34,454 nucleotides of DNA from the NCBI GenBank assembly GCA_037134835.1, contig JBAXLL010000001.1:1-34454 (forward strand). The letters run 5' to 3'. The translations under genes were made by a program, and so were the position numbers. The notes beneath the pieces are model-generated. The model worked only from the letters and a program-made list of their open reading frames with translations, did not search any database and was not told the DNA's origin. Below are positions 1 to 34,454 of the stretch, piece by piece. Numbering within the stretch: position 1 is the first letter of the stretch; the number at the start of each line of letters is the position of its first letter. Origin of the DNA: Verrucomicrobiota bacterium. GTDB taxonomy: Bacteria > Verrucomicrobiota > Verrucomicrobiia > Opitutales > Opitutaceae.

Positions 1-1575
1 GAGCACACCGCGCGCATCGTCCCACAGCTCGCGTTCGATGAATCCGGCCACCCGCACCGCCGCCGTCCGGCACCGCCCGCGCATCGCCCCAAGGCACTCC
101 GCCGGGCTGGTCGCACCGCGGGCGAAGGCCGAAAGCATCAGCCCGTTCCATGCCGTGATGATCTTGTCATCAAGGTGAGGCCGCGGCCGGGCAGCGCGCA
201 CCAAGCGCAGCTTCTCCAGTCCGCCACCGAGCGACGCCACCGCAGCTAGTAGATCAAGACCGAGCTTCCGGGCCGTCTCGGCCAGTGGGCGGGTCTGCGC
301 GAGGATGTTTTTGCCGGTAAATTCGCCGTGGGGATCGAGCTGCTCCCGCACATTGCCCTCCGGCCTGACGCCAAAGTGTGCGCAGAACAAGCCCGCGTCG
401 GCACCGAGCACCGAGACTATTTCCGCGTGGGTCCACGTGTAGAACGCGCCCTCGGCCTTCGCTCTTGTCCCTACTCGACACCCCTCCCCTCCCTCTCCTG
501 GTTTGGCAGTCTCGGGCAACAGCGAATCTGCATCCTCCGCCGAGTAAAGCCCCCCCCCCGGCGCCAGTAGGTCGCGCAGGACGTAGTCAAAAATCCCGCG
601 CGCAACCCAGGCGAAGCGCTCGTCGCCCGTCGCGAGGTAGGCATCGAGGACGTTTACCGCGATCTGCGCCTGATCATAGAGCATTTTCTCGAAGTGTGGC
701 ACCAGCCACCCCGCATCGACTGCATAGCGGTGGAACCCGCCGCCCACATGATCATGGATGCCGCCGCCCGCCATTTTTTGCAACGTGACTGTCGCCATGC
801 GCCCCGCCTCCCGGCCCAGCCCCGAGTCCTCCCCCTGGAGCACTGTGACGCGGAAGAGAAAATTCAGGTTCGACGCACACGGAAATTTTGGCGCACCGCC
901 AAAGCCACCATGCTGTGTATCAAATGCCTCGTAAAAATGCTGGAAGCCATGCCCAAAGGCCTCCCCGCCCGCCTCGGCCAGACGCGAGTCCGCAGACCTG
1001 GCACCGGACGCAACATCGGCGAGCCGGGCCGCTCCCCTTCCGGCGCCAGGCCCTTTGTCTTCCACCTTCGGCTCCAGCTGCGCCCGTAGTACGCCGATCA
1101 CCCGGTCCGCCTCGGCAACGAGCTTCTCCCGCCCCTCCGCCCAGCCCTTGGCGATGGCCCGCAGAACCGATACCAAACCCGGCCGTCCTTGCCGGTCCTC
1201 CGGTGGAAAATAGGTGCCGCCATGAAAGGGCTTCAGTTCCGGGGTGAGCCACGCGCTCAGCGGCCAGCCGCCGTGACCGGTGAGCCCCTGCACGTAAGTC
1301 ATGTAGATCTTGTCCACATCGGGCCGTTCCTCGCGGTCCACCTTGACGGGGACAAAATGCGCGTTGAGCAGCGCGGCGATGTCCGCGTGCTCGAACGACT
1401 CGTGCGCCATGACGTGGCACCAGTGGCAGGTCGAATAGCCGATGCTCAGGAAGATGGGTTTCTGCTCCGCACGTGCCTTGGCAAACGCCGCCTCGCCCCA
1501 CGGCAGCCAGGCGACGGGATTGTCCGCGTGCTGGAGCAGGTAGGGGGATTTTTCGTGCGCGAGGGCGTTGGGCAT
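1..1575 (-). CDS. Thioredoxin-domain protein of the DUF255/YyaL type (thioredoxin fold plus alpha/alpha-barrel); 3' end lies beyond the left window edge
   Basis: The frame is open from the ATG at 1575-1573 to nt 1. It is absent from the ORF track because no stop falls in the window. My translation gives [61 protein letters not shown]..., then [57 protein letters not shown] and EGAFYTWT. These are hallmark motifs of this family. Confidence 0.85.
550..559 (-). repeat. Homopolymer tract inside the CDS: C10 on the + strand, G10 in the mRNA
   Basis: Read directly as ...gtaaagCCCCCCCCCCggcgcc.... It is decoded in frame as CCG GGG GGG GGG CTT (P-G-G-G-L). Confidence 0.9.
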
Positions 1576-1685
1576 GAGAAAAAAAATAAGGGATAAGCGC
1601 CAAGACGCGAGGAAGCAACGCCGCCGGTGCGGCAACCGCACGGCAAAGTTTGGCCAAATTCACCGTAACCCAAAAGTAACATCGC

Positions 1686-3920
1686 GTGCCGCCGCAAATC
1701 TTGCCGTGCCGCTGGCAGGAATCATGCGTAGTCCGTTCACGCTTGACCAACGCACCCAAAACCCAATCCGCCGCGCCGCCGTTTGCACCCAATGTCCTCG
1801 CCGGGGCGATTTGCGCGCTGATGACGCTCGCTTACGCGAGCGGCTTCGCGACGCTGATTTTCGGCGGCACGCTCGCGCCGCACTCGGGGCAGGCGGTGCT
1901 GGCGGCCATCGTGAGCAGTTGCGTGACGATTTTGGTCTTGTCGTGGCGGAGCTCGTTTGGGTTCGCGATGGGCGGGCCGGACTCGAACCCGTCGGCCATC
2001 CTCGCGGTCACGGCCGGGGCCATCGCGGCCGAGATTGCGCGCGGAGCCACCGGCGCGGAGTCGGCGGACTTGCTGCCGACGGTGCTGATGTTTCTCTTCG
2101 TCGCCGCGTCGGGTTGCGGGCTGATCCTGTATTTTTTGGGTGCTCGCCATTGGGGCCGTTATGTGCGCTACATCCCGTATCCGGTGGTGGGTGGATTTCT
2201 GGTAGGCAGCGGTTTCCTGCTCGTGTCCGGCGCGTGGAAAATGCTCGTGGGCGCGTCGCCCGCGCACACGACCTGGGCGGAGATCGCGGCCGTGCCGCCG
2301 CTGGCGTGGGCGGCGGCGGCGGTCGTGGCGGCGGCGCTGCTCGTGCTGATGCGCGTCTCAAAACATTTTCTCGTGATTCCCGGCGTGATTTTTGGCGCGG
2401 CGGTTTTGTTTCACGTCGCGCTCCTCGCGACCGGCACCGGCCTTGCGGCGGCGCACATGTCCGGCCTGCTGCTCAGCCCGCTCAAGCCCGGCGCATGGAG
2501 CCAGCCGTTCAACCTGACGTGGGGCCATGTGCGCTGGGATTTGATTGTCGCACACGTCAACGATTTCGCCGCGATGACGATGGTCGTCGTTGTCACCATC
2601 CTGCTCAACGCCACCAGCCTCGACCACGCCACCGGGCTGGACGCCGACTTCGACCGCGAGCTCAAGGCGCTCGGGCTGGCGAATTTCCTGAGCGGTCTTC
2701 TCGGCGGGCTGGTCGCCGTGAACTCATTCAACCGCAGCCTGCTCAACCTCCGCGCCGGGGCCAACTCGCCGTGGGCGGGCCGCGTCTGCGTGGCCTTGGT
2801 GCTGCTGCTCACGCTCTTCGCGCCGGGCGCGGTGGCGCTGCTGCCCAAGCCGGTGCTCACCGGGCTGGTGTTTTACCTCGGCGTCTCGCTGCTGATGCAC
2901 TGGCTGTGGGACAGCCGGCACGAGATGCCGCGCGGCGACTACCTCACGATGCTGGCGATCCTCGCAATTGTGGTGGGCTTCGGCATCGTGCCGGGCGTGC
3001 TGCTCGGCGTGGTATTTTCGATGGTCAGCTTTGTGGTGACGTTCAGCCGCACCTCGGTCGTGAAACACCGTTTCAACGGCATGGTGCGCCACTCCAACGT
3101 CGAGCGCCTGCCCAAGGAAATGGACTGGCTGCGTCGCCACGGCGAGCATCTGCAGGGCGCAGTTTTCCAAGGCTACCTGTTCTTCGGCACCGCCACGGCC
3201 GTGCTCGACCAGTTGCGCGACGTGCCCGGCAAGGCCCGCGTGCTGCTCCTCGATTTCTGGCTCGTGCGCGGCATTGACGCCTCGTCCGTCATGGTCATGC
3301 GCAAGCTCCTCAAGCTCTGCGCCGACGCGAAAACCCAGGTGGTGTTCACCGGCGTTTCCCCGGCGTTGCGGGAAAAAATGCTCGCGAGCGGCCTCGACAT
3401 CGCACGCAGCCCCGCCCGAAGTTTTCCCGACCTCGACCGCGGCCTCGAATGGGCCGAGCAGACGGTCCTCAGCGAGGCCGTCGAGCAGATCACCCTCGGC
3501 CAGATGCTCGGGGGCCTCACGCCCACCGAGACCGAGACCGTCGCGCGCCACTTCGCAGAGCAAACGGCCCCCGAGGGCGAGACGTTCATCCGCAAAGGCG
3601 ACGCCGGCGACGCGCTCTTCATCGTGCTCAAGGGGCGCGTGAGCATCCAGCTCGTGATCAAAGGCTCCGACTTCCGCAAACGCCTCCGCACTTACGGCCC
3701 CGGCACAATCATCGGCGAGATGGGCTTCTACAGCGGCGCGCCGCGCAGCGCCGACATCTGCGCCGACACGTCCACCCATCTGCTGTGCATCACGCGCGAC
3801 AGTTTCGCGCAGATGGAAGCGGAAGACCCCGTGCTCGCAGGCAAGCTCCACCGCCTCGTGATCAACACGCTCGCCTCCCGCCTCCGCACCGCCAACGAGG
3901 CGCTGAACGATTTGCTGTAG
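1686..3920 (+). CDS. SulP/SLC26-family anion transporter fused to a STAS domain and a C-terminal cyclic-nucleotide-binding domain
   Basis: 744-aa ORF. The N-terminal part is multi-TM and hydrophobic (LAGAICALMTLAYASGFATLIFGG, NSFNRSLLNLRAGANS). A STAS-like segment follows (VLLLDFWLVRGIDASSVMVMRKLLKL...VVFTGVSPALREKM). The C-terminus carries a cNMP-binding signature (FIRKGDAGDALFIVLKGRVSIQ...GPGTIIGEMGFYSGAPRSADICA). The GTG start at 1686 is uncertain; TTG at 1743 is an in-frame alternative. Confidence 0.85.
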   Translation: MPPQILPCRWQESCVVRSRLTNAPKTQSAAPPFAPNVLAGAICALMTLAYASGFATLIFGGTLAPHSGQAVLAAIVSSCVTILVLSWRSSFGFAMGGPDSNPSAILAVTAGAIAAEIARGATGAESADLLPTVLMFLFVAASGCGLILYFLGARHWGRYVRYIPYPVVGGFLVGSGFLLVSGAWKMLVGASPAHTTWAEIAAVPPLAWAAAAVVAAALLVLMRVSKHFLVIPGVIFGAAVLFHVALLATGTGLAAAHMSGLLLSPLKPGAWSQPFNLTWGHVRWDLIVAHVNDFAAMTMVVVVTILLNATSLDHATGLDADFDRELKALGLANFLSGLLGGLVAVNSFNRSLLNLRAGANSPWAGRVCVALVLLLTLFAPGAVALLPKPVLTGLVFYLGVSLLMHWLWDSRHEMPRGDYLTMLAILAIVVGFGIVPGVLLGVVFSMVSFVVTFSRTSVVKHRFNGMVRHSNVERLPKEMDWLRRHGEHLQGAVFQGYLFFGTATAVLDQLRDVPGKARVLLLDFWLVRGIDASSVMVMRKLLKLCADAKTQVVFTGVSPALREKMLASGLDIARSPARSFPDLDRGLEWAEQTVLSEAVEQITLGQMLGGLTPTETETVARHFAEQTAPEGETFIRKGDAGDALFIVLKGRVSIQLVIKGSDFRKRLRTYGPGTIIGEMGFYSGAPRSADICADTSTHLLCITRDSFAQMEAEDPVLAGKLHRLVINTLASRLRTANEALNDLL

Positions 3921-3940
3921 GCCCGCGGCAAACCGTGCCG

Positions 3941-3962
3941 AGGCGGGGTTCGGCGACCCCGC
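3941..3962 (+). terminator. Possible terminator-like hairpin after the transporter gene
   Basis: GGCGGGGT-tcggcg-ACCCCGCC forms a perfect 8-bp GC-rich stem 21 nt after the stop. No clear U-tract follows (ctacaatgattt). Confidence 0.3.
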
Positions 3963-4035
3963 CCTACAATGATTTCGCCCGTCCCAGCATTCGTCTTGCC
4001 CACCGCGCGCCGGGCTGGTTTGCTGGCCGGTTCCG

Positions 4036-5922
4036 ATGCTCACCATCGCCGACGTTTCCAAGTCTTACGGCACCCGCGAACTCTTCGCGGATGTGTCGCT
4101 GTTCATCGCCCGCACCGACCGCTATGGCCTCGTCGGGCCCAATGGCGCGGGCAAATCCACGCTCTTTAATCTCATCCTGGGCGAAGAGGCACCTGACGAG
4201 GGCACCATCGAATGGGAACGCGGCGCCGACTTCGGCTTCCTGCCCCAGGAGAGCGCACCCGTCGGCGACGAGACGATCATCCAGATCGCCACCAGCGGGA
4301 AAAAACTGCTCCCGGAAACCGACGACGACTACGACATTGATTACACGCTGGAGCCGCGCGCGAAGAAGATCCTCGCCGGCCTCGGCTTCCGCGAAGGCGA
4401 CAGCGACAAGCTCGCCAAGACTTTCTCGGGCGGCTGGGTGATGCGCGCCCACCTGGCCCGGCTGTTGGTGGCCGAGCCCGCCCTGCTGCTCCTCGACGAG
4501 CCGACCAACCATCTCGACCTTGAGGCACTGCTGTGGTTTCAAGACTACCTCACGCGCTACCCCGGCGGCCTCGTGGTCATTTCGCACGATCGCGCCTTTC
4601 TCAACGTCCTCTGCACCGGCATCCTCGAGCTGCGGAGCTGCCGCCTCAACCGCTACACCGGCAACTACGACGACTATCTGGCCGAGAAGGAGGCGCGGAA
4701 GGATCAGCAGGCTGCCGCATTCAAGAACCAGCAGCGCGAAATCGCCCATCTCCAGAAATTTGTGGACCGATTCGGAGCCAAAGCCTCGATGGCTTCGCGC
4801 GCCAAATCGAAGGAAAAGCAGATCGAGCGCCTGGAGGCCGTCGCCGTCGAGGAACCGCAGGATGAGCTGAAGCGGATCCACTTTAAGTTCCCCCAGCCGC
4901 CGCGCTCCGGGCTCAAGGTCATTGAGCTTGAGCATGTGCAGCAGTCCTACGGGGACCATGTCGTCTACCGCGACCTGAACTTCAGTTGCGAGCGCGGCCA
5001 GCGCATCGTGCTCGTCGGCCCCAATGGCGCGGGCAAGTCCACGCTGCTCAAAATCCTCGGCGATGTCATCCCGATCCAAGGCGGCGTGCGCGAGCTCGGC
5101 AGCAACGTGATCACCGGCTACTTTGCCCAAAACCGCCTCGACAACCTGCACGCCGACGCGAGTGTGTTTGAAAACGTGATGGAGCTGCGGACCAATGAAA
5201 ACCAGCTCACCGAACAGCAGGGCCGGGCGATTCTCGGTGCCTTTCTTTTTCGCAAGGATGACGTTCATAAAAAGGTCTCCGTCCTTTCCGGTGGCGAAAA
5301 GTCCCGCCTCGCTCTCGCCCGGCTCCTCGTGAAGCCGCCCAACCTGCTCCTGATGGACGAGCCGACGACCCATCTGGACATCGCCTCGATTGACGCGCTC
5401 GTCGGTGCGCTGAAAAGCTACGAGGGCACGCTCATCTTCATCAGCCACGACGTGCATTTTATCCGGCAGCTCGCGCAAAACGTCCTCCACGTTCACTCCG
5501 GCCGGCTCACCCCCTACGCCGGCAACTACGACTACTACCTCGACAAGTCGAAGGCCTCCAACGAGCGCGCCGCCCTCACGGCCGGTTTCACCGACGCGCG
5601 GCCGAAGCAGAATCAGGCCGCCGCCCACTCCGGTTCCAACCGGACCCCGATGGCCGCGCCCCCCGCAGCCACCAAGTCCAAGGCCAATCCTGCCGAGATC
5701 AAAAAGCTCCGAGCCGAAGTCGGCCATCTCGAGGAAAACGTCTCCAAGCTCGAAGCGAAGCAAAACGAGCTTACGGCCGCCCTCGAAGCGCCCGAGACCT
5801 ACACGCAACCCGGCAAGGCCCAGCACCTGAACCGCGAGCTCAGTGTGATCGTGGACCAGCTCGCCGCCGCAACCACCGCATGGGAGCAGGCCGCCGGCCG
5901 CCTGGCCGCGCTCAACCCGTAA
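4036..5922 (+). CDS. ABC-F family ATPase: two ABC cassettes, no TM domain, C-terminal coiled coil (YheS/Uup-like)
   Basis: Two Walker A motifs (GPNGAGKST twice) and two ABC signatures (FSGGWVMRAHLARLL, LSGGEKSRLALARLL). The inter-domain linker is charged (YLAEKEARKDQQAAAFKNQQREIAHLQKFVDRFGAKAS). The C-terminal helix is charged (AEIKKLRAEVGHLEENVSKLEAKQNELTAALE). Confidence 0.9.
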   Translation: MLTIADVSKSYGTRELFADVSLFIARTDRYGLVGPNGAGKSTLFNLILGEEAPDEGTIEWERGADFGFLPQESAPVGDETIIQIATSGKKLLPETDDDYDIDYTLEPRAKKILAGLGFREGDSDKLAKTFSGGWVMRAHLARLLVAEPALLLLDEPTNHLDLEALLWFQDYLTRYPGGLVVISHDRAFLNVLCTGILELRSCRLNRYTGNYDDYLAEKEARKDQQAAAFKNQQREIAHLQKFVDRFGAKASMASRAKSKEKQIERLEAVAVEEPQDELKRIHFKFPQPPRSGLKVIELEHVQQSYGDHVVYRDLNFSCERGQRIVLVGPNGAGKSTLLKILGDVIPIQGGVRELGSNVITGYFAQNRLDNLHADASVFENVMELRTNENQLTEQQGRAILGAFLFRKDDVHKKVSVLSGGEKSRLALARLLVKPPNLLLMDEPTTHLDIASIDALVGALKSYEGTLIFISHDVHFIRQLAQNVLHVHSGRLTPYAGNYDYYLDKSKASNERAALTAGFTDARPKQNQAAAHSGSNRTPMAAPPAATKSKANPAEIKKLRAEVGHLEENVSKLEAKQNELTAALEAPETYTQPGKAQHLNRELSVIVDQLAAATTAWEQAAGRLAALNP

Positions 5923-18808: not shown

Positions 18809-19138
18809 TTAGGTTTTTAAAGTTTTCATGCGGGCGAAATCGCCGGCGTGGATGGATTGCCTGGGCTCCAGACTGAGAATCACCGCGGCGCAACAGGTCG
18901 GCCGCAGTTCAACGAGAAGAATCTCGGCCACCGGCACAGCCCCGCGCGTGACGCGGCACACCATGCCGGGACGCAGGTCCGAGTCGTAGCCGCCGCCGAG
19001 GATGACCAGATCGGCCGCCCGGACAGACTGCACAGCGACCACCGGCGCCGCGCCAGCCACGCGCGCCGGAGCGGCGCGTCCCGTGAACGGGGCGGCGGCA
19101 ACCGCGAGCAGCAGACAGAGAGGACGGAGGAAGCGCAT
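18809..19138 (-). CDS. Small (109-aa) hypothetical secreted protein inserted between rpsS and rplV
   Basis: MRFLRPLCLLLAVAAAPFTGRAAP looks like a signal peptide (basic n-region, hydrophobic core). It is followed by ...VILGGGYDSDLRPGMVCRVTRGAVPVAEILLVELRPTCCAAVILSLEPRQSIHAGDFARMKTLKT. The ATG lies 11 nt after the rpsS stop in the same CGCC-ATG context as the neighbouring r-protein genes. The ORF fills an otherwise unexplained 426-bp gap. The track ORF (to 19327) overlaps rpsS and is not credible. Confidence 0.6.
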   Translation of the reverse strand: MRFLRPLCLLLAVAAAPFTGRAAPARVAGAAPVVAVQSVRAADLVILGGGYDSDLRPGMVCRVTRGAVPVAEILLVELRPTCCAAVILSLEPRQSIHAGDFARMKTLKT

Positions 19139-19149
19139 GGGCGAAAGGT

Positions 19150-19425
19150 TTAAATTTCCTTGCGGGTCATACCACCGTGCGCCTTGAAGATGCGGGTGAG
19201 CGCAAATTCGCCGAGCTTGTGGCCGACCATGTTTTCGGTGACATAGACGGGAATGAACGCCTTGCCATTGTGCACGCTGAACGTGTGGCCGATGAAATCG
19301 GGCGTAATGGTCGAGCGGCGGGACCAAGTCTGGATGGGTTTCTTTGCGCCGGACTTGACGGCCTTCTCGATTTTCTCGAGCAGGTGATAGTCAACAAAGA
19401 AACCTTTTTTGATGGAGCGTGCCAT
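19150..19425 (-). CDS. rpsS: 30S ribosomal protein S19
   Basis: [78 protein letters not shown]. Confidence 0.97.
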
Positions 19426-24610: not shown

Positions 24611-25084
24611 TTACCAGCGGAGGTGGGCAAAGGCACGGTTCGCCTGCGCCATCTTGTGGGTGTCTTCCTTCTTTTTTACGACCGAACCCGTGTTGTTGTA
24701 AGCATCAACGATCTCAGCGGCGAGAGCGTCCTTCATCGGCAGGCCTTTGCGCGCGCCGGCGGCGCTGACAATCCAGCGCAAGGCCAGCGATTCCTGGCGT
24801 TCGAACGAAATTTCCACCGGCACCTGATAGGTGGCCCCGCCCACACGGCGGCTCTTAACCTCAAGTCTTGGGCGGGCGTTCTCCAAGGCACCGAGGAGCA
24901 AGTCCACCGGATCGCCCTTCTCCAACTTCTCAGAAACTTTTTCAAACGCCCCATAAACGATGCGCTGGGCAATGCTTTTCTTGCCAGACTTCATGATAAT
25001 ATTGACCAGATGCGCGACCAGCGGGCTGCTGTAGCGCATGTCCGGTTCAACGTGACGTTTCTCGGCTCTGTGACGGCGTGACAT
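24611..25084 (-). CDS. rpsG: 30S ribosomal protein S7
   Basis: [50 protein letters not shown]...[12 protein letters not shown]...[13 protein letters not shown]. Confidence 0.97.
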
Positions 25085-25119
25085 GACTTAAAAGAATAAA
25101 GGGTTGAAAAACAGACAGC

Positions 25120-25500
25120 TCACTTGGCGGCCTTCGGCCGTTTGACCCCGTATTTGGAGCGGGAGCGACGGCGCTTTTCCACCCCGGTGGCGTCAAGCGT
25201 CCCCCGCACAATGTGATAGCGGACGCCGGGCAAATCCTTCACGCGGCCACCGCGAACCAAGACGATCGAGTGCTCCTGCAAAGAGTGTCCCTCGTCGGGG
25301 ATGTAGGAAATGACTTCACTGCCGTTCGTGAGCCGGACCTTTGCGACCTTGCGGATGGCGGAGTTGGGCTTCTTGGGCGTGCGCGTCATAACCTGCACGC
25401 AAACGCCGCGGCGGAAAGGGTTGCCCGCCAAGGCCGGCGATTTGGACTTCGCAACGATGTTGCGGCGTCCTTTGCGCACAAGTTGGTTGATGGTCGGCAT
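25120..25500 (-). CDS. rpsL: 30S ribosomal protein S12
   Basis: [100 protein letters not shown]. The start is Met21 of the track ORF. Confidence 0.97.
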
Positions 25501-25576
25501 ACGAATTGAGAGAGGGAATTGGTGGAAAAGAGGTTGAACGTGAACACCCGCCAACCGCACAGCAAGAACTTTTTGG

Positions 25577-25616
25577 AAAAAAAACGCGGTGCGCCGGCAA
25601 AGTGCCGCCGCACCGC
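25577..25616 (-). terminator. Strong rho-independent terminator closing the pseudopilin cassette, upstream of rpsL
   Basis: The + strand reads aaaaaaaac-GCGGTGCGCCGGC-aaagt-GCCGCCGCACCGC. This is a 13-bp stem with one mismatch and a 5-nt loop. On the minus strand it is followed directly by G-TTTTTTTT. It lies 68 nt after the stop of the 1549-aa gene. Confidence 0.8.
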
Positions 25617-25683
25617 ATGGGAACGAGCCACCGCCACCAGCCCGGGAGAGAAAATTCCGGCCGGATCGGTTCAGTCAAATCCC

Positions 25684-28600
25684 TTAGATTTCGTCCTGGG
25701 TGAGCCAGCGGAACGACACGATACGGAAGCGGCGGCCATAGACCTGATTGACCGGCTCGATGTGGCTCTCCGGAATACTCTGCTCACCGCTGGGATGCAC
25801 GGAAGCAGGATCGCGAGGATCAATGTAGTCGGGGAAACGCTGGACCACGGCCTCAAGCCAAGCCCGCGCCTTGATGTCACGCACCTGATCCACCTTGTCA
25901 GGGTTGGCGTTCAACGGATCAACCGCGTCACCATAGGCACGGATCACAAAGGTATCGGAACGGGCGGACAAGTTTGGCCCGATGGCCTGCAAAATGTCGG
26001 CCTGGGTCAGCCAGCCAGGGATCCCGGTACTGCGCGACAACGCCACACCCTCGCCGGGCGCGGTGACCGTCGTCACCGAGAGCGAGATGGTCGCGTTCGG
26101 AAGCACATCGGCAAATGGCGTAGAATCGGTCTTGCTGGTAGGGATGCCAGACTGGGCTCCATCGCCGCCCATCCTCTCATTGGGTCGCGAAGTAATTGCG
26201 ATCGAGTGCGATCCCGTGTACACATCTTTAAAAATTTGGTTGGGGTCGGTTGTGATATTGATACCCGCCCGGTCAATCGCCATTTGCAATGCCCCTGCCA
26301 CCTCGACGGTGTTTTTCTCATTGCCCAGGTAACCCTTTTCCATCTCAAAATTCCCTTCCAAGCCTTTCATCACGAGATCCTTGATGGCTGAAGTTGTGCC
26401 CGTGATGCCACCGCGATTGATGAAGCTGGCCAAGGAGGGAAATGGGCCGCGCAGCCGGATTTCCTGCACCAGCGTCGTGGCGAGCGCGACAATCTGCGCA
26501 TCGGTGAGCCGACGATAGCCTGCATAGCTGGAAAATGTGTGGGTGGTTTCCTTTTCACCCGCGGTGTAGCGGGATTGCCAGAGGGTGCGGGGGTAGGAAG
26601 TGCCCTTGCCTGTGACCCGGGTCGTGGCATCCTGAATATTGGTCTGGCTATTCATGCCGCTAGCACTGCGGTTGCGCAGGCCGCCCAATACCGCACTCCA
26701 CGCCTCAATGGAGGTGGAGTTGATGTTGAAGGCTCCGTCCACCATCAGGTAGCGGGCCGGCACATATTCCTTGGGAATGTGCAGGCTCGAATTAAAGGCG
26801 TCGGGGGCCGAAGCATTGGCCGGAATGTCACTCGGCCGGTCGTAAAGCGCAAGCTGCTCGTCGGTCGGTGTAACTCCGGCACCATACACCAGCCGTGGAT
26901 TGGCCGAGCGGCCCGTGCCGCCCTTCGCCTGCTTCAGCTGCGGAATACCGGCAAAATAAAACCGGTCCCACAGGGCGGTGTTGAGCAGGTAGGACATGTC
27001 AAAATAGTTGGTGCCCGTAAGACCGTTGGAGGTCGTCTCAGTGATCGTCGCCGCATTGGCGTACCAGATATTGGGCCGGATCTGTTTCGTCATGGTGCGG
27101 GTGACCAAGGGGTGAAACCAAGAATTGCCCACCGCATTGCCTGGCTGGTGCCCGACAAAGGGATATTGGTCGTCAGCCGTAAGGTTGGCATGCTGCAAAA
27201 ACCCAATGGAGAGGACGGGCATGTCCAATTCCGAACTGCGGCGCGGCAGATCAAAGAGCATCGTGCTGTAATTGATCGAACCGCTCAGACTTGAGTTGAA
27301 ATTGGTGTTGTCCGAAGTCGTACTTGTGTATTGGGAGTTGGGTCCCCAGGCCGGGGGCCAATTGTTGAGCATCCGGTCAAGCCCACGGCCGACAGCCGCC
27401 AAGGAGCCAGTCGCCCCGGGGCCTCCGGTGGCATCCAAATACCCGCTTTTATAAGGCGGGACCGGCCCCAAGCCAAGCACCGGGGTGGAAACCCACGGCA
27501 GCGGATGATATTGGGCCTGCAAATTGTAATCAGCAAATGTCCGATAGGCCCCGGTGGCCGCATCCACCGTTTCTGGCACGCCAATCCCCTGATTGACCTT
27601 GTAGTAATCATTAAATATTCTTCCCAAATAGCTGATTGTTATTGAGAAAGGTAGCAATGGCGCAGGCAACTGCAGTTCGGACATGAAACCGCCAATATTA
27701 CCGCCAGCCACTGAGCCCACGCCTTCTCTGATCTTTGTGGTCGTTCCCCGCGGAGCGAAGACTGCATCCGCCCACTCGGCGTTGATGATGGAGGAATAGA
27801 CCTGATGGCCTTTATCTATTTTGCGGTCATTATAATCCCGCAGATAGATACTCGATGCGGCGCCTTTGTTCAAACTGTTCGTAACCGTGACCTCGGTCAT
27901 TTCCGTTGAAACGGTGAAGACCAATTTCTCCCTATCCACTCCATCGACGATGCCAGCTCCGATGGAACTGAGGATGAAATGACTCGTGATTATATTGGGA
28001 GCACCAATGGTGGCGGTAATCAAACGCAGGTATTTTTTATGGGTCGTGTCGGCAAAAGTTTGTGCGGGCGTACTAGGGTCAAGCTGAAACCCGAGGACGC
28101 CGCCAGCGGGGATGGTGATCGGTTGGCCGCCGTTGGTCTCCCGGTCGGCATAATAGATGAACCCCGTCAGCCCGGACGGCTTCTCCGGCTCAATCTGGGG
28201 CAAGGGGTCTAGCCCATTGATATAGGTTCGTTTGGACATCCAACTGTTGGACACCGTGTTGCCTTGCGAATACTGGCCATTGAGAAAAATCGGCATACTG
28301 ACCCGAGCGTTGCCGCCACGAGGATCGGTGAACGAGGCGTCGATATTGACCCGATTAGGATTCCACACCGATCGGATACCCGGCCCCGGCTCTCTAAGCT
28401 TGGGATAACCCGGATTGACCCAAACAAACTCCAAGCCCTTGGGAAAAGTCAGGGCGGCATTGTAGGGATTGCCCACCGCGAAAGCCAACCTGATGTCATA
28501 GCTATAGGTCATCGTCCACGTTTTGATGGAAGGCAATGGATTTTCCAGCGTCGAATTCGGATCGGGCTCCATCTTGACCTCTGGTGGGGCAAAAATGGCC

Positions 28601-30333
28601 GAGCTATAAAACCTTGCCTGCACCAGTTGCGGGGCGACGTGAGCCAAAATGGGAACGCTGTTGGACGCCTGCGGCTCCTGATCCATCCCAATGGAGGGGA
28701 TCTGAGAGGTGCCAATCTGGGCAATCATGCTGGCGTTCGGCGTCGGCCTAAGCTGTTTCGAGATGTCATACCAGCTTTTCAAAATATCCCAAGAAGGCAA
28801 GGCCAGTCCCGAGCCGGAGATCATCAGATTATAGGGCGAAACATCCTTGGCATCTAGCGAGAGGGCGGGATCTCGGAGCGCAGGATCAATCCACAGGCTT
28901 CGAGCCAGCCCGTTGGGCAAAGAGTTCTGCACCCGAAAGGAAGGCAGGATGCCGAGGCTTCTGAGCCGCTCATTATAAAACGGGCTAAAATTGGGCACAG
29001 CCACCTGGTCGGCGTTGAAGGTGGGACGCATGCTCTCTGTCCCATCGTCTAACAGGGAAGTAAGGTCAATTTTCAAGCCCCCGCGCAGCGTGTCGGTGAG
29101 CAGTCCGTAAGAAGAAACCGTGAGGTTGTGAAAATTGCTCCGAATGATGGCGTCGGCTGTCGTGTAAGTGTTGGGCCGGGGATCCAGAAACCGCAGTTGC
29201 TGGAGCGACTGGACATTGGGGATGAGCGTGGTGGTGAAGGTGGTGCTGGCGGGAGCAGTCGAGGAGGTGTTAACGGGATAAGAAATGCTCGTCGCGGTAT
29301 TCCCACCCCCGGAAATGGAGTCGGTAAATCCCGGCACCAGCTCAATGCCATTCCGCAACGCGACCTGAATCCGCAACCTGGCGCGGGCGCTCGAAACACT
29401 ATTCGTCTCCGCCATGGCGTTGAATCCATCATTGGGATCCCGGAGATTGGCCTTGGCCTTCACCCCTTCATCCAACACCGCATAGCCAAACCGGCCGCTG
29501 AGCTTGCCGGTAGCACTGTTGCCAAGTCCAGGAATCATGGCTGAACTGACGGTGATGGACACCAACGGGACCGCCACATAGGTATCTGGCTGGCCCGGCA
29601 AGGTACTGGCCGTGCTCCAACTCGCTGTGCCTGGCCCCACGAGTATGACACCCTGCTTGCCATTGATGGTCACATTGGGACTGAGTGCGGTCGAAGTCGT
29701 GGTCACACCTTGAATCGTGCTGTCCGGGGTGTATGGCATCGTTGAAGCGGATGTCGCCGATATAATTCGGCCTGCACCAAAGGTGGAGGTGGTAAAGTTG
29801 ACCCCCTCATTGCCGCTCACCAACCAAGTGAGAAGAATGGGAGTGGGAGATTTGATGTAGCTGTCATCTGCCACATCTAAATTGCCCAAAACACCCGTCC
29901 AGAAACGGCTGCCCGCCTGGAGGTGCTGGGGCAACCCTGCCGTGGTCTCGTTTTTACCTTCTTTGACATAACTGTTCGTGACCGTATGCGCGAATGTATT
30001 CCGACCCTTCCCGGGTAGGGGAATGTTCAGGCCATTGGCCAAGAGGGTGGAATCGGCAAATTCAGCCTGGATGGTAATCCTCTGATCGTGACCGGCAAAT
30101 TTTTCCAACTGACCGATGGCAGTCTGCAGGCCCACGAGCGCGTTTTGCTGCGCCTGAATCTGCGCCGTGCCGCTATCGGCAATCTGGCCGCCAGTGCGGA
30201 TCAGAAACGTGAGCGAGAGCAGCAGAACGACGAGGAAGGCCGTCAACGTCAGGCTGACGATCAAGACGAAGCCACGCGATTTTACAGGCCGGCGGCCGGC
30301 AGGAGCCGAGAGAGGGGGATAGCGGTTGGTCAT
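25684..30333 (-). CDS. Giant (1549-aa) GspK-like minor pseudopilin / putative fibre-tip protein (candidate 'Verru_Chthon cassette protein A')
   Basis: The N-terminus ...RRPVKSRGFVLIVSLTLTAFLVVLLLSL is pilin-like with no Glu at +5, as in GspK. The last ~350 aa carry GspK/helix-hairpin-helix-like motifs: FNINSTSIEAWSAVLGGL, RRLTDAQIVALATTLVQEIRLRGPFPSLASFINRG and LSARSDTFVIRAYGDAV...ARAWLEAVVQR. The ~1150 aa between them are Ser/Thr/Asn/Gly/Pro-rich with no domain I recognise. It is the last gene of the cassette. Confidence 0.8.
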   Translation of the reverse strand: MTNRYPPLSAPAGRRPVKSRGFVLIVSLTLTAFLVVLLLSLTFLIRTGGQIADSGTAQIQAQQNALVGLQTAIGQLEKFAGHDQRITIQAEFADSTLLANGLNIPLPGKGRNTFAHTVTNSYVKEGKNETTAGLPQHLQAGSRFWTGVLGNLDVADDSYIKSPTPILLTWLVSGNEGVNFTTSTFGAGRIISATSASTMPYTPDSTIQGVTTTSTALSPNVTINGKQGVILVGPGTASWSTASTLPGQPDTYVAVPLVSITVSSAMIPGLGNSATGKLSGRFGYAVLDEGVKAKANLRDPNDGFNAMAETNSVSSARARLRIQVALRNGIELVPGFTDSISGGGNTATSISYPVNTSSTAPASTTFTTTLIPNVQSLQQLRFLDPRPNTYTTADAIIRSNFHNLTVSSYGLLTDTLRGGLKIDLTSLLDDGTESMRPTFNADQVAVPNFSPFYNERLRSLGILPSFRVQNSLPNGLARSLWIDPALRDPALSLDAKDVSPYNLMISGSGLALPSWDILKSWYDISKQLRPTPNASMIAQIGTSQIPSIGMDQEPQASNSVPILAHVAPQLVQARFYSSAIFAPPEVKMEPDPNSTLENPLPSIKTWTMTYSYDIRLAFAVGNPYNAALTFPKGLEFVWVNPGYPKLREPGPGIRSVWNPNRVNIDASFTDPRGGNARVSMPIFLNGQYSQGNTVSNSWMSKRTYINGLDPLPQIEPEKPSGLTGFIYYADRETNGGQPITIPAGGVLGFQLDPSTPAQTFADTTHKKYLRLITATIGAPNIITSHFILSSIGAGIVDGVDREKLVFTVSTEMTEVTVTNSLNKGAASSIYLRDYNDRKIDKGHQVYSSIINAEWADAVFAPRGTTTKIREGVGSVAGGNIGGFMSELQLPAPLLPFSITISYLGRIFNDYYKVNQGIGVPETVDAATGAYRTFADYNLQAQYHPLPWVSTPVLGLGPVPPYKSGYLDATGGPGATGSLAAVGRGLDRMLNNWPPAWGPNSQYTSTTSDNTNFNSSLSGSINYSTMLFDLPRRSSELDMPVLSIGFLQHANLTADDQYPFVGHQPGNAVGNSWFHPLVTRTMTKQIRPNIWYANAATITETTSNGLTGTNYFDMSYLLNTALWDRFYFAGIPQLKQAKGGTGRSANPRLVYGAGVTPTDEQLALYDRPSDIPANASAPDAFNSSLHIPKEYVPARYLMVDGAFNINSTSIEAWSAVLGGLRNRSASGMNSQTNIQDATTRVTGKGTSYPRTLWQSRYTAGEKETTHTFSSYAGYRRLTDAQIVALATTLVQEIRLRGPFPSLASFINRGGITGTTSAIKDLVMKGLEGNFEMEKGYLGNEKNTVEVAGALQMAIDRAGINITTDPNQIFKDVYTGSHSIAITSRPNERMGGDGAQSGIPTSKTDSTPFADVLPNATISLSVTTVTAPGEGVALSRSTGIPGWLTQADILQAIGPNLSARSDTFVIRAYGDAVDPLNANPDKVDQVRDIKARAWLEAVVQRFPDYIDPRDPASVHPSGEQSIPESHIEPVNQVYGRRFRIVSFRWLTQDEI

Positions 30334-30421
30334 GGTCCGTACGAGGTTGGGAGGGGCTTCGAAACGTTCAAAAAATACTCACAGGCGCAGCAAATTCAAC
30401 TCAGGAAACGCGAAAGGCCAT

Positions 30422-31858
30422 TCATGGCTGGACACCGGGCAGGGCGATGCGCCGGGTGAAGATATGCGAATGTTCCAAAGCAATCCGCCACCAGAAAGCC
30501 TTGGTGGTCTCCGTGTTCTCCCTTTGTGGAGCAGTGACCCCAATCGCAGGATTTTCCAAAGCGTCAATCAGGCGAGCTCCCTCTGCATCCAGAATCCGGA
30601 GAAAAACATCCACGTAAACGGGTGTACAAGGCCGGTCGGGCTCCTTCCCGGTATTGCCCGTGGCACGGTACGCGAATCCGTAAGTCATGTTCTTGACTGA
30701 CGCATATGGCCCGGTCCATCCAATGCCAGACACAGGTTGGATGCCTGGATATGGGATCCCTAGGTCATCCCGACGGGTGAAACCGTCCTCGGTACTGATC
30801 GCAAATCCAGTATTGGGAGTTGAAGTCGGATTAAGGGAGGAGGGGAAAAGCAACACATCCATCGGGTGGCCGCCGTTTGCGGGATCAGTCGTCCGCCCCC
30901 AGACCAGCACGCCAAAATCTATCACGTTTTCCGCAATGACCTGGTTGATGTTAGGCTGGCGAAGGGTGCCCGCGTCATTCAGGATTCGGCCGCCCTTGTC
31001 TGGGTCGTTGTAGATGCTCGCCAGACCGGTATGAACAGCGCCGGTTGAAAGGGTGCTGGTCGCAAAGACCTGAAATAAATCATACCCGGCGCCATAAGTG
31101 GACCGATTCCGCTGCAACGCGTCTTTGCTGTCAGCCGAGGGGCGCACCGTCGAGCGCATGAGATAATAACGATATGAGTCGTTGCTCTCACCATTTTTCA
31201 TGCGCACAATCTGGTAGCCGACCGCATGAGGCACCGATGCATTGATGGGATCAGCATCCTTTTTTTGCGATTCGATGGTAAAAAACCGCAGCCACACCCC
31301 GGCCTGCCCGAAGCGAAAGCGCGACAAATCCACCACATTGGTCTTCTTATCGAGGCTTGGTCTGGCAAGCGTTGGATCCGGGACAATCAGATCGCTTGAC
31401 GTGGCCGAGTGTGGCGGTTCGTAGGGGGGCAAAACCAACGACGAGCCCTCAACTTCCTTGTTCACCCCGGGATCCCCTTGGCCCGACGGCTTGATGGTGC
31501 CGTTTCCCTTCGATTTCCAAAAAGTGTAATCCAGCAAGCGAGCAGTGCCATTCGGACTTTCGGTCAACCCTTGGGTGTCGCCCTTGCCCTCTTGATCCGG
31601 CTGCACCGTAGCCGCCAGCCAGACTCGTCCATCCCGCCGTATCACCGCCGAACCCAGATCGCGATCCAAGTTTTCCAGCACGAGAGAGGCTTGGTTTTCA
31701 GTGGTGATGACGCCCACCGCCCGGTTCACCTGCTTCAGACTGTTCGTGGTGAAGCCGAGAAAAAAACTCACCATCAACAACGTAATGGCCAGCGCCACCA
31801 TCAGTTCGACCAACGTGAACGCACGCAGGGCAGGGAAATTGGAGGTTCGTCGAGTCAT
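30422..31858 (-). CDS. Large (478-aa) GspJ-position pseudopilin with a prepilin-type N-terminal cleavage/methylation motif
   Basis: MTRRTSNFPALRA|FTLVELMVALAITLLMVSFFLG has F+1 and E+5, with Ala rather than Gly at -1. Its ATG overlaps the upstream stop as ATGA (31855-31858). Confidence 0.8.
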   Translation of the reverse strand: MTRRTSNFPALRAFTLVELMVALAITLLMVSFFLGFTTNSLKQVNRAVGVITTENQASLVLENLDRDLGSAVIRRDGRVWLAATVQPDQEGKGDTQGLTESPNGTARLLDYTFWKSKGNGTIKPSGQGDPGVNKEVEGSSLVLPPYEPPHSATSSDLIVPDPTLARPSLDKKTNVVDLSRFRFGQAGVWLRFFTIESQKKDADPINASVPHAVGYQIVRMKNGESNDSYRYYLMRSTVRPSADSKDALQRNRSTYGAGYDLFQVFATSTLSTGAVHTGLASIYNDPDKGGRILNDAGTLRQPNINQVIAENVIDFGVLVWGRTTDPANGGHPMDVLLFPSSLNPTSTPNTGFAISTEDGFTRRDDLGIPYPGIQPVSGIGWTGPYASVKNMTYGFAYRATGNTGKEPDRPCTPVYVDVFLRILDAEGARLIDALENPAIGVTAPQRENTETTKAFWWRIALEHSHIFTRRIALPGVQP

Positions 31859-32511
31859 CGGGCCAAGGCGTAATTATAAATAAATGCACTCCGCTGGCTT
31901 CGCTCCACCGGAAGACCGGTGTTCGCATCATGCGCCGGCCATGAAATCCTTACGACGAACTGGACCGAAGCGGCCTCACGCAGCTTGATGGGGTCGGTTT
32001 CTCCGCTAGGGGAGTCTCGCGAGGCACTGTCATCAAAGCCCCGCACCAGCATGACCTCAAAGTATTTTTGCTTGTCCGATACAGGATCGTTTCTGGCACC
32101 CCAGATCGGATCGATATAAGTCCCGATCTTATCTCCCAATTTACTGACATAAAGTAATTTAACGTCGGTGTTTTTGATATTCGTATCGTCGGGGGATTGT
32201 GCCTTGCCGAACAAGAGTCCGGTTGCACCCACCGAGGGGGGATCGCCTTCGGCTGCGCCCTGCACCACGCGGTAGCCAAAGCTGTCCAACTTTGTGTTAA
32301 TGGTAGATACGATGCGCTTGGCAAGTGCATGATCCAAGACGGCGGTTTCCGCCTGGGTGCTATTGCTCATCATCACGATGGCCATGATCACCGCGACCGT
32401 AAAAATGCCAAGGGAGACCAGCACCTCGATGATGGTAAAACCACATGGAACGGGACGCCGGGGCAGGTGTGAAGCAGGCTTAGCGGGTAGTAGGGAAGTC
32501 ATACACATCAT
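31855..32511 (-). CDS. GspI-position pseudopilin (218 aa) with a canonical prepilin motif
   Basis: ...RRPVPCG|FTIIEVLVSLGIFTVAVIMAIVMM. Three candidate ATGs exist (32511, 32508, 32502). All overlap the upstream gene end (stop at 32480-32482). Confidence 0.8.
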   Translation of the reverse strand: MMCMTSLLPAKPASHLPRRPVPCGFTIIEVLVSLGIFTVAVIMAIVMMSNSTQAETAVLDHALAKRIVSTINTKLDSFGYRVVQGAAEGDPPSVGATGLLFGKAQSPDDTNIKNTDVKLLYVSKLGDKIGTYIDPIWGARNDPVSDKQKYFEVMLVRGFDDSASRDSPSGETDPIKLREAASVQFVVRISWPAHDANTGLPVERSQRSAFIYNYALAR

Positions 32512-33325
32512 TCAAAAGGACGGGGTTGCCATACTGCGTAATCCTCACGCCACGAACATTCTGCGGGTTGGTGAAGATCATGGGATCGCCGGAATTGGAT
32601 GCTGTGTCGCGCATGGCTTCGGAGAGCACGATCAGATCAGGCGTGTCACCCGAATTCACGTTGCCGAATGAATTAAACTCGATATAAAAATAGCGCCCAA
32701 CCTTCTCGTCCACGGTCATTTGCGTTTCGGTGGGGGCCACCGCCGCTCCGCTGGAGGGTTTGCTGGTGGTGGTATTGCTCATCGAGTTGAACTGGGAGAG
32801 CCGGGTCTTACCCGCCGGCCAGCTTCCCTCCCATACGCGCGGGATCTTGGTGGGCGGCACGACATAAATCCCTTGGGGAAAGACGAGCGGGCTACCCACG
32901 GTTTTCCATCGAGGGGAAGCGGGGCTCAATGGATCCAGTACGACCACCTGCATTTGCCGCAGATAAAGCGCCTTCTCGCTGTCGGTGCCAGCGTTGGCGA
33001 AAACGATCAGCCGTGAGGCACCAACACTGCTCGTGTTCAAGTTGACCGTACTGACCCGCGCCTGCAAACGAGCCAGATTTACCAGTGCGGCTACCTCGGC
33101 TTGGACGACTTTGAGGTTGGTTCCTGGATGGTTCATGCGGGCATAGCTGAACAGGCCCATTCCGATCACCATGATGCTCATGACCACCAGCAGCTCAACG
33201 ACGGTATAAGCCCCGTGTGCAGCTTGGACCCGCGCCCCACGCCCGACCCTCCCGATCACGCCGGAGCCCATCGCGGAGAACCGATCACGCGAGAAAAACG
33301 AGTGCGCTGAAACAAGAGGAATCAT
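32480..33325 (-). CDS. GspH-position pseudopilin (~281 aa) with a non-canonical prepilin motif
   Basis: ...RVQAAHGA|YTVVELLVVMSIMVIGMGLFS places E at +5 only if cleavage follows Ala. I chose the ATG at 33325, which overlaps the upstream stop as TAATG. The track ORF starts 21 nt upstream (33346). Met at 33271 is another option. Confidence 0.75.
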   Translation of the reverse strand: MIPLVSAHSFFSRDRFSAMGSGVIGRVGRGARVQAAHGAYTVVELLVVMSIMVIGMGLFSYARMNHPGTNLKVVQAEVAALVNLARLQARVSTVNLNTSSVGASRLIVFANAGTDSEKALYLRQMQVVVLDPLSPASPRWKTVGSPLVFPQGIYVVPPTKIPRVWEGSWPAGKTRLSQFNSMSNTTTSKPSSGAAVAPTETQMTVDEKVGRYFYIEFNSFGNVNSGDTPDLIVLSEAMRDTASNSGDPMIFTNPQNVRGVRITQYGNPVLLNDVYDFPTTR

Positions 33326-34029
33326 TATTTCGGGTCCAGATCCCAATTTGTCACCGCTGCTTTGGACTCAACGACCGTGCCATGGGGGTTGCCGGCGCCG
33401 GCCGAATAAAAAAGTACCCCGGCGCGCAGTCCTTTCACTGGGATATCACCGTTCGCCATCGGATCATAGGTGCCTCCAAATTGATCCGCAACTGCTGGAT
33501 AAGTATTGCTATCCACCGTGTTAATAAATCCGTCTAAATTTTTATCCAAGAGCACAGCAATTACTGTGTTTCCGAAGGCATCCATGAGCAACGGTTTCTT
33601 CTCGTCATCTCTGGAGATTTCATTGCCCGCAAACGTGTAGAAAGACAGCAGCCGACTGTTACCGTAGAGGTCAGAGGCTTTTGCCTTTGCTTGGCGCAAA
33701 TCGCTTGAATTTCCATCTGCATGCCGCCCTGTCAGGGCAACCGCAAATCGGTCCGTCGAGATGACATTGGGTGGGGTGGTATCTTTCGTGGAACTACCCC
33801 AAAGAATCGGATAAGATCCATATTCTGCCCGAAACATTTCCATCGCCGTGCCCCATTGGCTAAACTGGGCCTTCGTACGGGTCCGATACGCTTTATTTTG
33901 CAGCGCGCTGGCAATAGGTATTGTGATGGACATCAAGACCGTGATACACATGACCACCGTCAAGAGTTCGATGATGGTGAAACCTCGGCGGAAGCTCCAT
34001 GGATGAGGATTATTGGATGGCAGGTTCAT
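33325..34029 (-). CDS. Second GspG-like pseudopilin (~234 aa) with an EF-hand-like calcium loop
   Basis: MNLPSNNPHPWSFRRG|FTIIELLTVVMCITVLMSI is a canonical motif. It also has FRAEYGSYP, LMDAFGNTVIAVLLDKNLDGFINTVD and a C-terminal FYSAGAGN. An alternative ATG at 34062 would add 11 aa. Confidence 0.8.
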   Translation of the reverse strand: MNLPSNNPHPWSFRRGFTIIELLTVVMCITVLMSITIPIASALQNKAYRTRTKAQFSQWGTAMEMFRAEYGSYPILWGSSTKDTTPPNVISTDRFAVALTGRHADGNSSDLRQAKAKASDLYGNSRLLSFYTFAGNEISRDDEKKPLLMDAFGNTVIAVLLDKNLDGFINTVDSNTYPAVADQFGGTYDPMANGDIPVKGLRAGVLFYSAGAGNPHGTVVESKAAVTNWDLDPK

Positions 34030-34454
34030 AAATATTATCGGCGTTTTCACCGCTACTGGCATCTTCGCTCAAGAAGCCTTTCTCATTGTACACCGTCTTG
34101 GACACCCCGTCTATTCCGTCACTCCAAAGGAGGTAGGAAGGGTTGAGCCAGCTCTGTTCCGGCACCTTGTAAACATAGTGATAGGGATTTCCCCACGAAT
34201 CCAGCAATTCGTTCGTACCCATGGTAGATTCAGTCAGTGCCTCCGGATGGCTCACATCAAAATGGCTCAGGTTGGCCAGCAGGGTTTTGCCAGGCGGATC
34301 CACCTTGTCACGCTTCGGACCCATCTTGCCGGTCAACGCATCAAAGAGCTCTTTTGCCTTCTCCGTCTGGGGGTAGTCCCCATATTGCAATTTGTACAGG
34401 GTCAAAGCCTGGGCGATGCCAGCGAGCTGACTGCGTGTCCGCGCCACCAGAGCC
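34010..34454 (-). CDS. GspG-type major pseudopilin; 5' end (N-terminal helix) lies beyond the right window edge
   Basis: The open frame continues to the window edge (...ALVARTRSQLAGIAQALTLYKLQYGDYPQTEKA...). The C-terminal LLDSWGNPYHYVYKVP...YLLWSDGIDG resembles the GspG signature DPWGNPY...S.G.DG. Confidence 0.8.
   Translation of the reverse strand, partial: ALVARTRSQLAGIAQALTLYKLQYGDYPQTEKAKELFDALTGKMGPKRDKVDPPGKTLLANLSHFDVSHPEALTESTMGTNELLDSWGNPYHYVYKVPEQSWLNPSYLLWSDGIDGVSKTVYNEKGFLSEDASSGENADNIYEPAIQ

Follow-up and report, generated by a model that had tools for sequence, protein, structure and literature searches.

What kind of filament is assembled from a set of pseudopilin-like proteins that ends in a giant, and what could such a giant do? 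This question is raised by the 34,454-nucleotide window analyzed here (contig JBAXLL010000001.1 of assembly GCA_037134835.1, from an Opitutaceae member of the Verrucomicrobiota; "the window" is this whole stretch), in which six consecutive minus-strand open reading frames (ORFs) fill positions 25684-34454. We call the genes G1, G2, H, I, J and K after the pseudopilin genes gspG-H-I-J-K of the type II secretion system (T2SS), whose order they follow. On balance, we favor the interpretation that the six genes are the complete subunit set of a GspG-class type IV filament, with the motor encoded elsewhere and with the giant K protein at the tip.

The six genes are tightly packed (Table 1). G1 and G2 overlap by 20 or 53 nt, depending on the G2 start, TAATG at 33323-33327 joins G2 to H, H and I overlap by approximately 29-32 nt, ATGA at 31855-31858 joins I to J and a gap of 88 nt separates J from K. 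Between the K gene and rpsL stands a terminator hairpin with a folding free energy (dG) of -30.4 kcal/mol (z = -3.8), and equally good folds were seen in 0/200 shuffles. Gene order, overlapping junctions and terminator together show that this is one operon. Nor are the genes chance ORFs, since homologues reach an E-value of 0 and the synteny is conserved. The same gene calls were obtained in the independent assembly ENA ERZ27300038 (12 kb), with products of 142+ (partial), 234, 281, 217, 478 and 1549 aa. An earlier note on this DNA, made from its letters, had described six coupled minus-strand genes with these junctions, sizes and prepilin motifs, products far above the classical pseudopilin size and a strong terminator at the operon end, and all of this was found again.

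Table 1. Coordinates of the cassette genes and of the terminator in the window (a slash marks the prepilin cleavage site).
Feature	Position and size	Strand	Evidence
G1, GspG-type pseudopilin, 3' part only	34010-34454	minus	runs off contig end
G2, second GspG-like prepilin	33325-34029, 234 aa (alternative start 34062, 245 aa)	minus	motif RRG/FTIIEL, TIGR01710
H-like minor pseudopilin	32480-33325, 281 aa	minus	motif A/YTVVEL, gspH matches of the family
I-like minor pseudopilin	31855-32511, 218 aa	minus	motif G/FTIIEV, gspI TIGR01707
J-like large minor pseudopilin	30422-31858, 478 aa	minus	motif A/FTLVEL, family matches
K-like giant, putative cap subunit	25684-30333, 1549 aa	minus	G/F cleavage site, hydrophobic helix without Glu
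Intrinsic terminator, operon end upstream of rpsL	25577-25618	minus	15-bp GC-rich stem + U8

The ends of the window and of the ERZ27300038 assembly are no more than 15 nt apart (34440-34454). Both fall inside the 5' part of G1, a short way downstream of the stretch for the conserved prepilin helix; the repetition of this G1 segment in many PulG-like paralogues is a likely cause. By comparison with the 195-aa orthologue in the closest relative (locus L003), about 48 N-terminal G1 codons lie beyond the contig end. In that relative, which has contigs of up to 120 kb and a K that is 76% identical, lgt-scpB-pheA is followed by G1(195)-G2(233)-H(280)-I(218)-J(480)-K(1547) and then by rpsL-rpsG-fusA-S10. 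The same arrangement, scpB-pheA, then G-G2-H-I-J-K, then rpsL, was seen in a second relative (L086, K 45% identical). Because pheA and rpsL bound the cassette in both relatives, we regard it as complete with six genes and without flanking assembly machinery. In a third relative (L089, K 39% identical) K lies directly upstream of rpsL in the form of tandem modules of K and a partner gene, described below, one of them fragmented. The rpsL-proximal position of the K family is thus older than the six-gene operon, as the L089 array also adjoins rpsL.

Comparison with these relatives showed that the cassette diverges much faster than its flanking genes, as would be expected of exposed pilins. Toward L003, the cassette proteins are 55-76% identical as compared to 93-100% for the flanking S12, S7, EF-G, S10, L3 and L2, and toward L086 the values are 36-53% and 81-96%, respectively. 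The G+C content also differs, being 0.53-0.59 over the cassette (25001-34454) and mostly 0.60-0.68 in window positions 1-25000. This could reflect a foreign origin or a differing amino-acid composition; any acquisition would have been ancient, because the relatives share the synteny.

No GspD/E/F/O is encoded in the window, as the earlier note had stated, and a scan for a GspE-type Walker A motif found none in any frame. The remaining genes of the window encode a SulP-STAS-cNMP transporter, an ABC-F ATPase, SecY and the str/S10/spc ribosomal operons. The same note had suggested that the machinery might lie upstream of 34454; what the relatives have at this place is pheA-scpB-lgt and no assembly genes, and in both of them gspC/L/M/D/E/F are adjacent to the cassette on neither side. 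Likewise, no recurrent assembly genes were found near 85 loci of the K family. The genome of one Opitutales isolate contains 67 PulG-like genes and, separately, a T2SS gene cluster (PMC13274419), which makes it plausible that motors are encoded apart from pilin genes in this group.

The four complete small subunits, G2, H, I and J, have the hallmarks of type IV filament subunits: a class III leader with G or A before and F or Y after the cleavage site, Glu at +5 and a hydrophobic helix (GFTIIEL in G2, AYTVVEL in H, GFTIIEV in I and AFTLVEL in J). N_methyl and TIGR02532 matches of the small subunits are at or near threshold. The N-terminus of G1 is off the contig, and that of the L003 orthologue carries GFTVAEL. 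G1 is a probable GspG-type major pseudopilin, as indicated by a GspG-type C-terminal segment (WGNPY...SDGIDG) and by the fragment passing Pfam T2SSG (PF08334; 34.9 bits, cut-off 21). It also matches the gspG model TIGR01710 with E = 5.6e-6, where G1 and its orthologues score 26-53 bits (cut-off 88.85); the upper value belongs to the full-length L003 protein (195 aa), whose N- and C-terminal parts match solved GspG structures. G2 matches TIGR01710 with E = 9e-10 over profile positions 1-60 (38.7 bits, cut-off 88.85), and GspG was its top hhalign target among E. coli GspG-K (94.8% probability), while no match to anything was obtained for its large C-terminal part.

A second reference for the remaining proteins is the Verru_Chthon cassette, a four-gene set (NCBIfam/TIGRFAM proteins A-D) that was flagged in Verrucomicrobium/Chthoniobacter and whose function is unassigned in TIGRFAM. 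The accessions given for it in the earlier note were right, with TIGR02596 being protein D, TIGR02598 protein B, TIGR02599 protein C and TIGR02600 protein A. Window H matches TIGR02596 with E = 0.004 (17.3 bits, cut-off 70) and has no match to the gspH model TIGR01708 (cut-off 80 bits). An exhaustive HMMER search gave an H family of 173 representatives, and of its 61 aligned members 55 match gspH (E <= 1e-3, best 7.5e-11), 41 Verru_Chthon D (best 2.3e-9) and 22 XpsH. For I, the gspI model TIGR01707 gives 35.9 bits (cut-off 44.35) and is covered at 95 of 101 positions, and E. coli GspI is the top hhalign target (81.7% probability). The word-index homologue search with I returned a near-identical copy and one 62%-identical relative only. 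Window I has no match to TIGR02598 (cut-off 51.4 bits), which is the best match of the L086 orthologue (25.4 bits). J has 123 homologues of 311-510 aa. Among 44 members of this family, TIGR02599 is matched by 31 (best E 2.4e-9), the HpsC model by 29 (best 3.5e-10) and gspJ by 3. Window J itself matches neither the gspJ model TIGR01711 nor TIGR02599 (cut-off 256.5 bits), on which L086 J reaches 17.2 bits; the same model gives 17 bits on the G2 N-terminus. E. coli GspJ is the top hhalign target of the J family (93.2% probability over 68 columns). The alignments of J, I and G2 to E. coli Gsp proteins mainly span the N-terminal helix and its extension, and searches with the K, J and H family profiles against PDB sequences found at most N-terminal pilin helices, with no match for K. 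An AlphaFold2 (AF2) model of window J has a 54-residue N-terminal helix followed by beta-sheets, with a predicted local distance difference test score (pLDDT) of 86.7 and a predicted template-modeling score (pTM) of 0.88. Foldseek with this model against PDB gave nothing significant, the best match being a Thermus type IV-like pilin (E = 0.23). In terms of homology the order G-G2-H-I-J-K proposed in the earlier note therefore stands in part: gene order, motifs and remote homology support it, but no equivalog cut-off is reached. The hidden Markov model (HMM) search that the note had called for gave G1 as passing Pfam T2SSG and left the other matches below threshold, with none for K.

K begins with SRG/FVLIVS and thus lacks Glu at +5. 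This is a family trait: in an alignment of 46 members the +5 residue is I, V, A, T, M or L in all 44 that have one and Glu in none, and of 42 sequences 40 have G at -1 and 40 have F at +1. Behind the helix come ~1450 residues without a recognizable fold. With a pilin-type leader and helix without Glu5, and as the last gene before the terminator, K has the features of a cap subunit of the GspK/PilX type. Window K has no Pfam or NCBIfam match even at E <= 10, TIGR02600 (cut-off 332.3 bits) and GspK NF037980 included, and does not qualify as a T2SS GspK. Relatives of K reach 22-27 bits on NF037980 (profile positions 1-70 only, cut-off 130) and 19-30 bits on TIGR02600 at their first ~60 residues; one relative (L011) is also collinear with TIGR02600 positions 224-309, a block of 85 residues. 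Pfam T2SSK was matched by 0 of 23 K-family members. The label K-type is drawn from last-gene position, pilin-type leader, missing Glu5 and weak N-terminal matches, and the pilin fold is putative.

K-family members are mostly 1150-1250 aa long, with a core of ~1170 aa. The greater length of window K does not stem from an added terminal domain; the extra ~380 residues are ~19 scattered insertions into this core. We also considered a fusion with the partner protein described below as the source of the length and rejected it, since the additional residues are dispersed and the partner HMM finds nothing in K or elsewhere in the window. A homologue of 1168 aa (P0019) was modeled with AF2 (pTM 0.84, pLDDT 75.9) as one compact body, in which a helix of 63 residues at the N-terminus leads into a long part of mixed alpha/beta structure and three long strands stand at the C-terminus. 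No Foldseek match with E < 0.09 was found for this model in PDB and BFVD. A weak likeness to beta-sandwich accessory domains of GH2, GH3 and dextranase (probability <= 0.3) was not taken as evidence.

The K family extends far beyond this lineage. In a scan of one genome per species at least 600 stretches matched and at least 554 were confirmed as relatives, and a word-index protein search returned 54 homologues. The best species-representative match, among the matches listed, is 38% identical to window K, which places the window lineage outside these genomes; the names of the nearest homologues point to a probable relation to Opitutae. The 80 loci listed belong to Verrucomicrobiota (Opitutae, Verrucomicrobiae including an Akkermansia muciniphila metagenome-assembled genome (MAG), and Chthoniobacter) and Kiritimatiellota, with one "Bacterium isolate", and several genomes have multiple copies. 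Directly 3' of the giant, 64 of 77 loci have a conserved gene for a ~240-aa partner with a Sec signal peptide and without a Pfam match, a candidate chaperone or second tip component. Examples are found at L011 13500-14348, L025 13500-14300 and L078 13773-14528, and further ones at L089 144-914 and 9342-10070 and at L090 8480-9184. The partner HMM finds nothing in the window, and the partner is also absent from the window's closest relatives. As K there sits in a full pseudopilin operon without the partner, unlike at most loci, the window clade represents a special arrangement. Recurrent neighbors of K-family genes are PATR/PEP-CTERM proteins, AraC and LacI regulators, sulfatases, SASA esterases and a GH26 that bears ricin lectin domains, and single loci add GH97, GH3, GH43 and rhamnogalacturonan lyases. 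In the array of L089, a second K-like gene is split in four ORFs (1010-4945; 480, 456, 87 and 240 aa) and is apparently a pseudogene; it lies in tandem upstream of the intact K and partner module, and the array adjoins the upstream side of rpsL. The A. muciniphila MAG (contig CAMDAD010000024.1, L011 9971-13492) has a 1173-aa member with the partner gene between housekeeping flanks, and this giant is not among the MUL1/MUL2 genes named in the literature on those loci. In the literature on Verru_Chthon, on pseudopilins and minor pilins of Verrucomicrobia and on the Akkermansia MUL loci, we found no description of the K family.

From the established priming model of the T2SS and the type IVa pilus (T4aP), we infer how the six proteins could work together. 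In the filament, two subunits would be G-like and the other four would form an H-I-J-K-like priming or tip complex; the operon encodes none of the motor. A prepilin peptidase encoded elsewhere would cut the class III leaders, whereupon I, J and K would nucleate on an inner-membrane platform with its ATPase, likewise encoded elsewhere. K, since it lacks Glu5, would be the terminal subunit, H would connect the G polymer with the tip complex, and growth of the polymer beneath would push the ~165-kDa head of K outward. At the fiber tip the head, probably an adhesin or glycan binder, would most likely bind a surface or polysaccharide, either in adhesion or in substrate capture. K would then unite the cap role of GspK/PilX with the tip-adhesin role of PilY1, as has been proposed for HpsA/PilX-EPS and ComZ. 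We favor tip display with binding because the head is so large, the family has many paralogues, the cassette diverges fast relative to its flanks and the paralogues lie in glycan-utilization neighborhoods.

Such a design has precedents. Cyanobacterial PilX-EPS/HpsA (>1280 aa) and Thermus ComZ are cap pilins with huge inserted domains, and, as putative tip plugs or adhesins, they have been proposed to replace a separate PilY1-type tip adhesin (bioRxiv 10.64898/2026.02.12.705559). K resembles them as a cap pilin of >1000 aa without Glu5 that is encoded with core minor pilins, and the J family is remotely similar to HpsC. It differs from them in several respects: no sequence similarity between K and HpsA was detectable and the phylum is another one, the K homologue had no Foldseek match to ComZ or solenoid proteins, and the major subunit here is GspG-class, not PilA-class. 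In addition, the sheet-closing strands in the model of the K homologue are all C-terminal, and almost all of the protein is placed between them and the helix. The T4aP minor pilins with PilY1/PilC offer another parallel, namely four minor pilins and a tip protein of ~1100-1500 aa in one operon possibly away from the motor genes, and a tip complex that primes assembly and is displayed. There, in contrast to K, the large protein does not itself bear the pilin-type leader and helix, and the major subunit here is GspG-like. Neither a Pfam match (Neisseria_PilC) nor a Foldseek beta-propeller match places K with PilY1/PilC.

Several observations weigh against a filament with K displayed at its tip. 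Every GspG/H/I/J/K equivalog cut-off is missed by the window proteins, alignment of the K family with E. coli GspK by hhalign gave 4% probability over 21 helix columns, and the J model showed no significant GspJ match (E = 3.3 against a chain of the XcpGHIJK model). The K structure model is that of a homologue ~30% identical to window K, and for it Foldseek found no GspK, PilX, ComZ, PilY1 or solenoid match (best E 0.096). No binding domain is recognizable in K, and the idea of glycan binding draws on the neighborhoods of paralogues, not on that of the window copy. At the 80 loci K-family genes rarely adjoin pilin genes, and a Walker A of the GspE/PilT-type ATPases lies within 10 kb at 2 of 85 loci; as pilin and ATPase neighbors are so rare elsewhere, the link between K and a filament draws mainly on the operon of the window lineage. 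Finally, the view of ATPase, platform, secretin and prepilin peptidase covers the window and the flanks of the relatives.

The main rival is an ordinary T2SS pseudopilus, that is, a short periplasmic piston that pushes folded exoproteins such as carbohydrate-active enzymes through a secretin, with the whole tip including K in the periplasm and with the enlarged H-I-J-K complex serving substrate recruitment or secretin gating rather than display. We judge this possible, although less probable than a displayed tip. The gene order is exactly gspG-H-I-J-K, with the translational coupling known from E. coli K-12 (b3328-b3332) and P. aeruginosa (XcpT-X), and the class III leaders, the last subunit without Glu5 and the GspG-class G1 with its C-terminal signature are all shared with T2SS pseudopilins. 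Among remote matches, T2SS models rank first for H, I and J, and for each of I, J, H and G2 the protein at the corresponding position is the top or nearly the top match. The conserved housekeeping position next to rpsL would also suit a piston, and T2SS clusters of related Opitutales are thought to export polysaccharide lyases (PMC13274419). The sizes speak against it: 195/234/281/218/478/1549 aa stand against 145/169/125/195/327 aa in E. coli, and a ~165-kDa head added to H (281 aa) and J (478 aa) by far exceeds every characterized T2SS tip and would be expected to fit a secretin vestibule poorly. Unlike a T2SS operon, the cassette has an extra G paralogue, no gspC/D/E/F/L/M/O nearby and products that miss the equivalog cut-offs, and K has only the N-terminal helix in common with GspK. 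Many K paralogues per genome suit exchangeable tips better than a single piston, and the rapid divergence of the cassette suggests exposure.

The other alternatives are each tied to one known system. The earlier note had proposed a Verru_Chthon-type cassette, and the likeness is evident in the same phylum and in the same architecture of a giant protein without Glu5 with three prepilin-type proteins. The weak matches are position-specific (H to D, the L086 orthologue of I to B, the J family to C and relatives of K to A), and two distant homologues of K carry the UniRef name "Verru_Chthon cassette protein A". As membership the proposal fails, with the scores 5- to 15-fold under the curated cut-offs, none of which is reached, and with the giant undetected by TIGR02600; the A matches span ~60 N-terminal residues and, in a single relative, the one 85-residue block. 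The two G-type genes fall outside the four-gene definition, and across the wider K family the usual form is a module of two genes, K and the 240-aa partner. Since the weak matches are position-specific and yet the cut-offs are missed, we regard the cassette as a sister within a broader superfamily, and bona fide membership with proteins A-D as unlikely. The matches suggest that Verru_Chthon D, B, C and A may themselves be H-, I-, J- and K-like priming sets. Slightly less likely again is an Hps-like system, in which a giant cap and pseudopilins prime a filament for polysaccharide secretion or gliding-type motility as hpsA-D do in filamentous cyanobacteria. HpsA is also a cap pilin of >1280 aa encoded with pseudopilins, and the HpsC matches of the J family extend to window J (E = 2e-4); with 20.9 bits this falls far below the cut-off of 200. 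Against it, the HpsA models matched none of the K-family proteins scanned, no glycosyltransferase or polysaccharide-export gene flanks the cassette, and the K head, to judge from the secondary structure of the model, would have long beta-strands and helices, not the short-strand pattern of a beta-solenoid. The least probable system, and a very improbable one, is a competence pseudopilus for DNA uptake with a large ComZ-like tip pilin. Thermus ComZ gives a precedent for a bulky tip pilin, and N-terminal matches to ComGC/D/E/F models were seen below threshold, but these cover the generic N-terminal helix only and score lower than the T2SS models. The neighborhood contains neither comEA nor comEC nor dprA, and Foldseek found no ComZ match.

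Two further features of the window were noted in passing. Between rpsS (19150-19425) and rplV in the S10 operon lies a 109-aa ORF (18809-19138, minus) with a Sec-type signal peptide (MRFLRPLCLLLAVAAAPFTGRAAP...). L003 and L086 have equally long gene calls, without a Pfam match, at this position; a gene for a secreted protein in the S10 operon is unusual. At 1686-3920 (plus), a SulP-family transporter is fused to STAS and to a C-terminal cyclic-nucleotide-binding domain, an uncommon fusion unrelated to the cassette.

As a concept, priming sets of minor pilins that carry a giant cap are already known from cyanobacteria and Thermus, and TIGRFAMs flagged an analogous cassette. What is new here is a cassette outside the curated families that is centered on a large, unmodeled family without a known fold relative. 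The theme of cap pilins enlarged to tip adhesins, as in HpsA and ComZ, would thereby be extended to a GspG-class system in another phylum. The operon links a widespread family of giant "hypothetical proteins", without a Pfam/NCBIfam model or structural relative, to a fiber context, and it offers a hypothesis that can be tested on hundreds of orphan genes, one of them in A. muciniphila. In soil, water and gut, the breakdown of polysaccharides is in large part the work of bacteria such as the Verrucomicrobiota, which are major degraders. A type IV-like pilus was recently proposed for glycan attachment in Akkermansiaceae (PMC13174399). As a more speculative extension, which we hold to be doubtful, the K giants may form a large, so far unrecognized class of exchangeable fiber tips, specific to Verrucomicrobiota and Kiritimatiellota, with hundreds of loci, several paralogues per genome and a fold without a solved relative; one remote motor of T2SS/T4P type would load these tips to capture particular polysaccharides or particles. 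If this were true, the stand-alone modules of K and partner in glycan-utilization loci would be substrate-specific tips and the window lineage would keep the complete ancestral fiber operon. Verrucomicrobial polysaccharide utilization, with the A. muciniphila homologue included, would then have a pilus-based arm for substrate capture.

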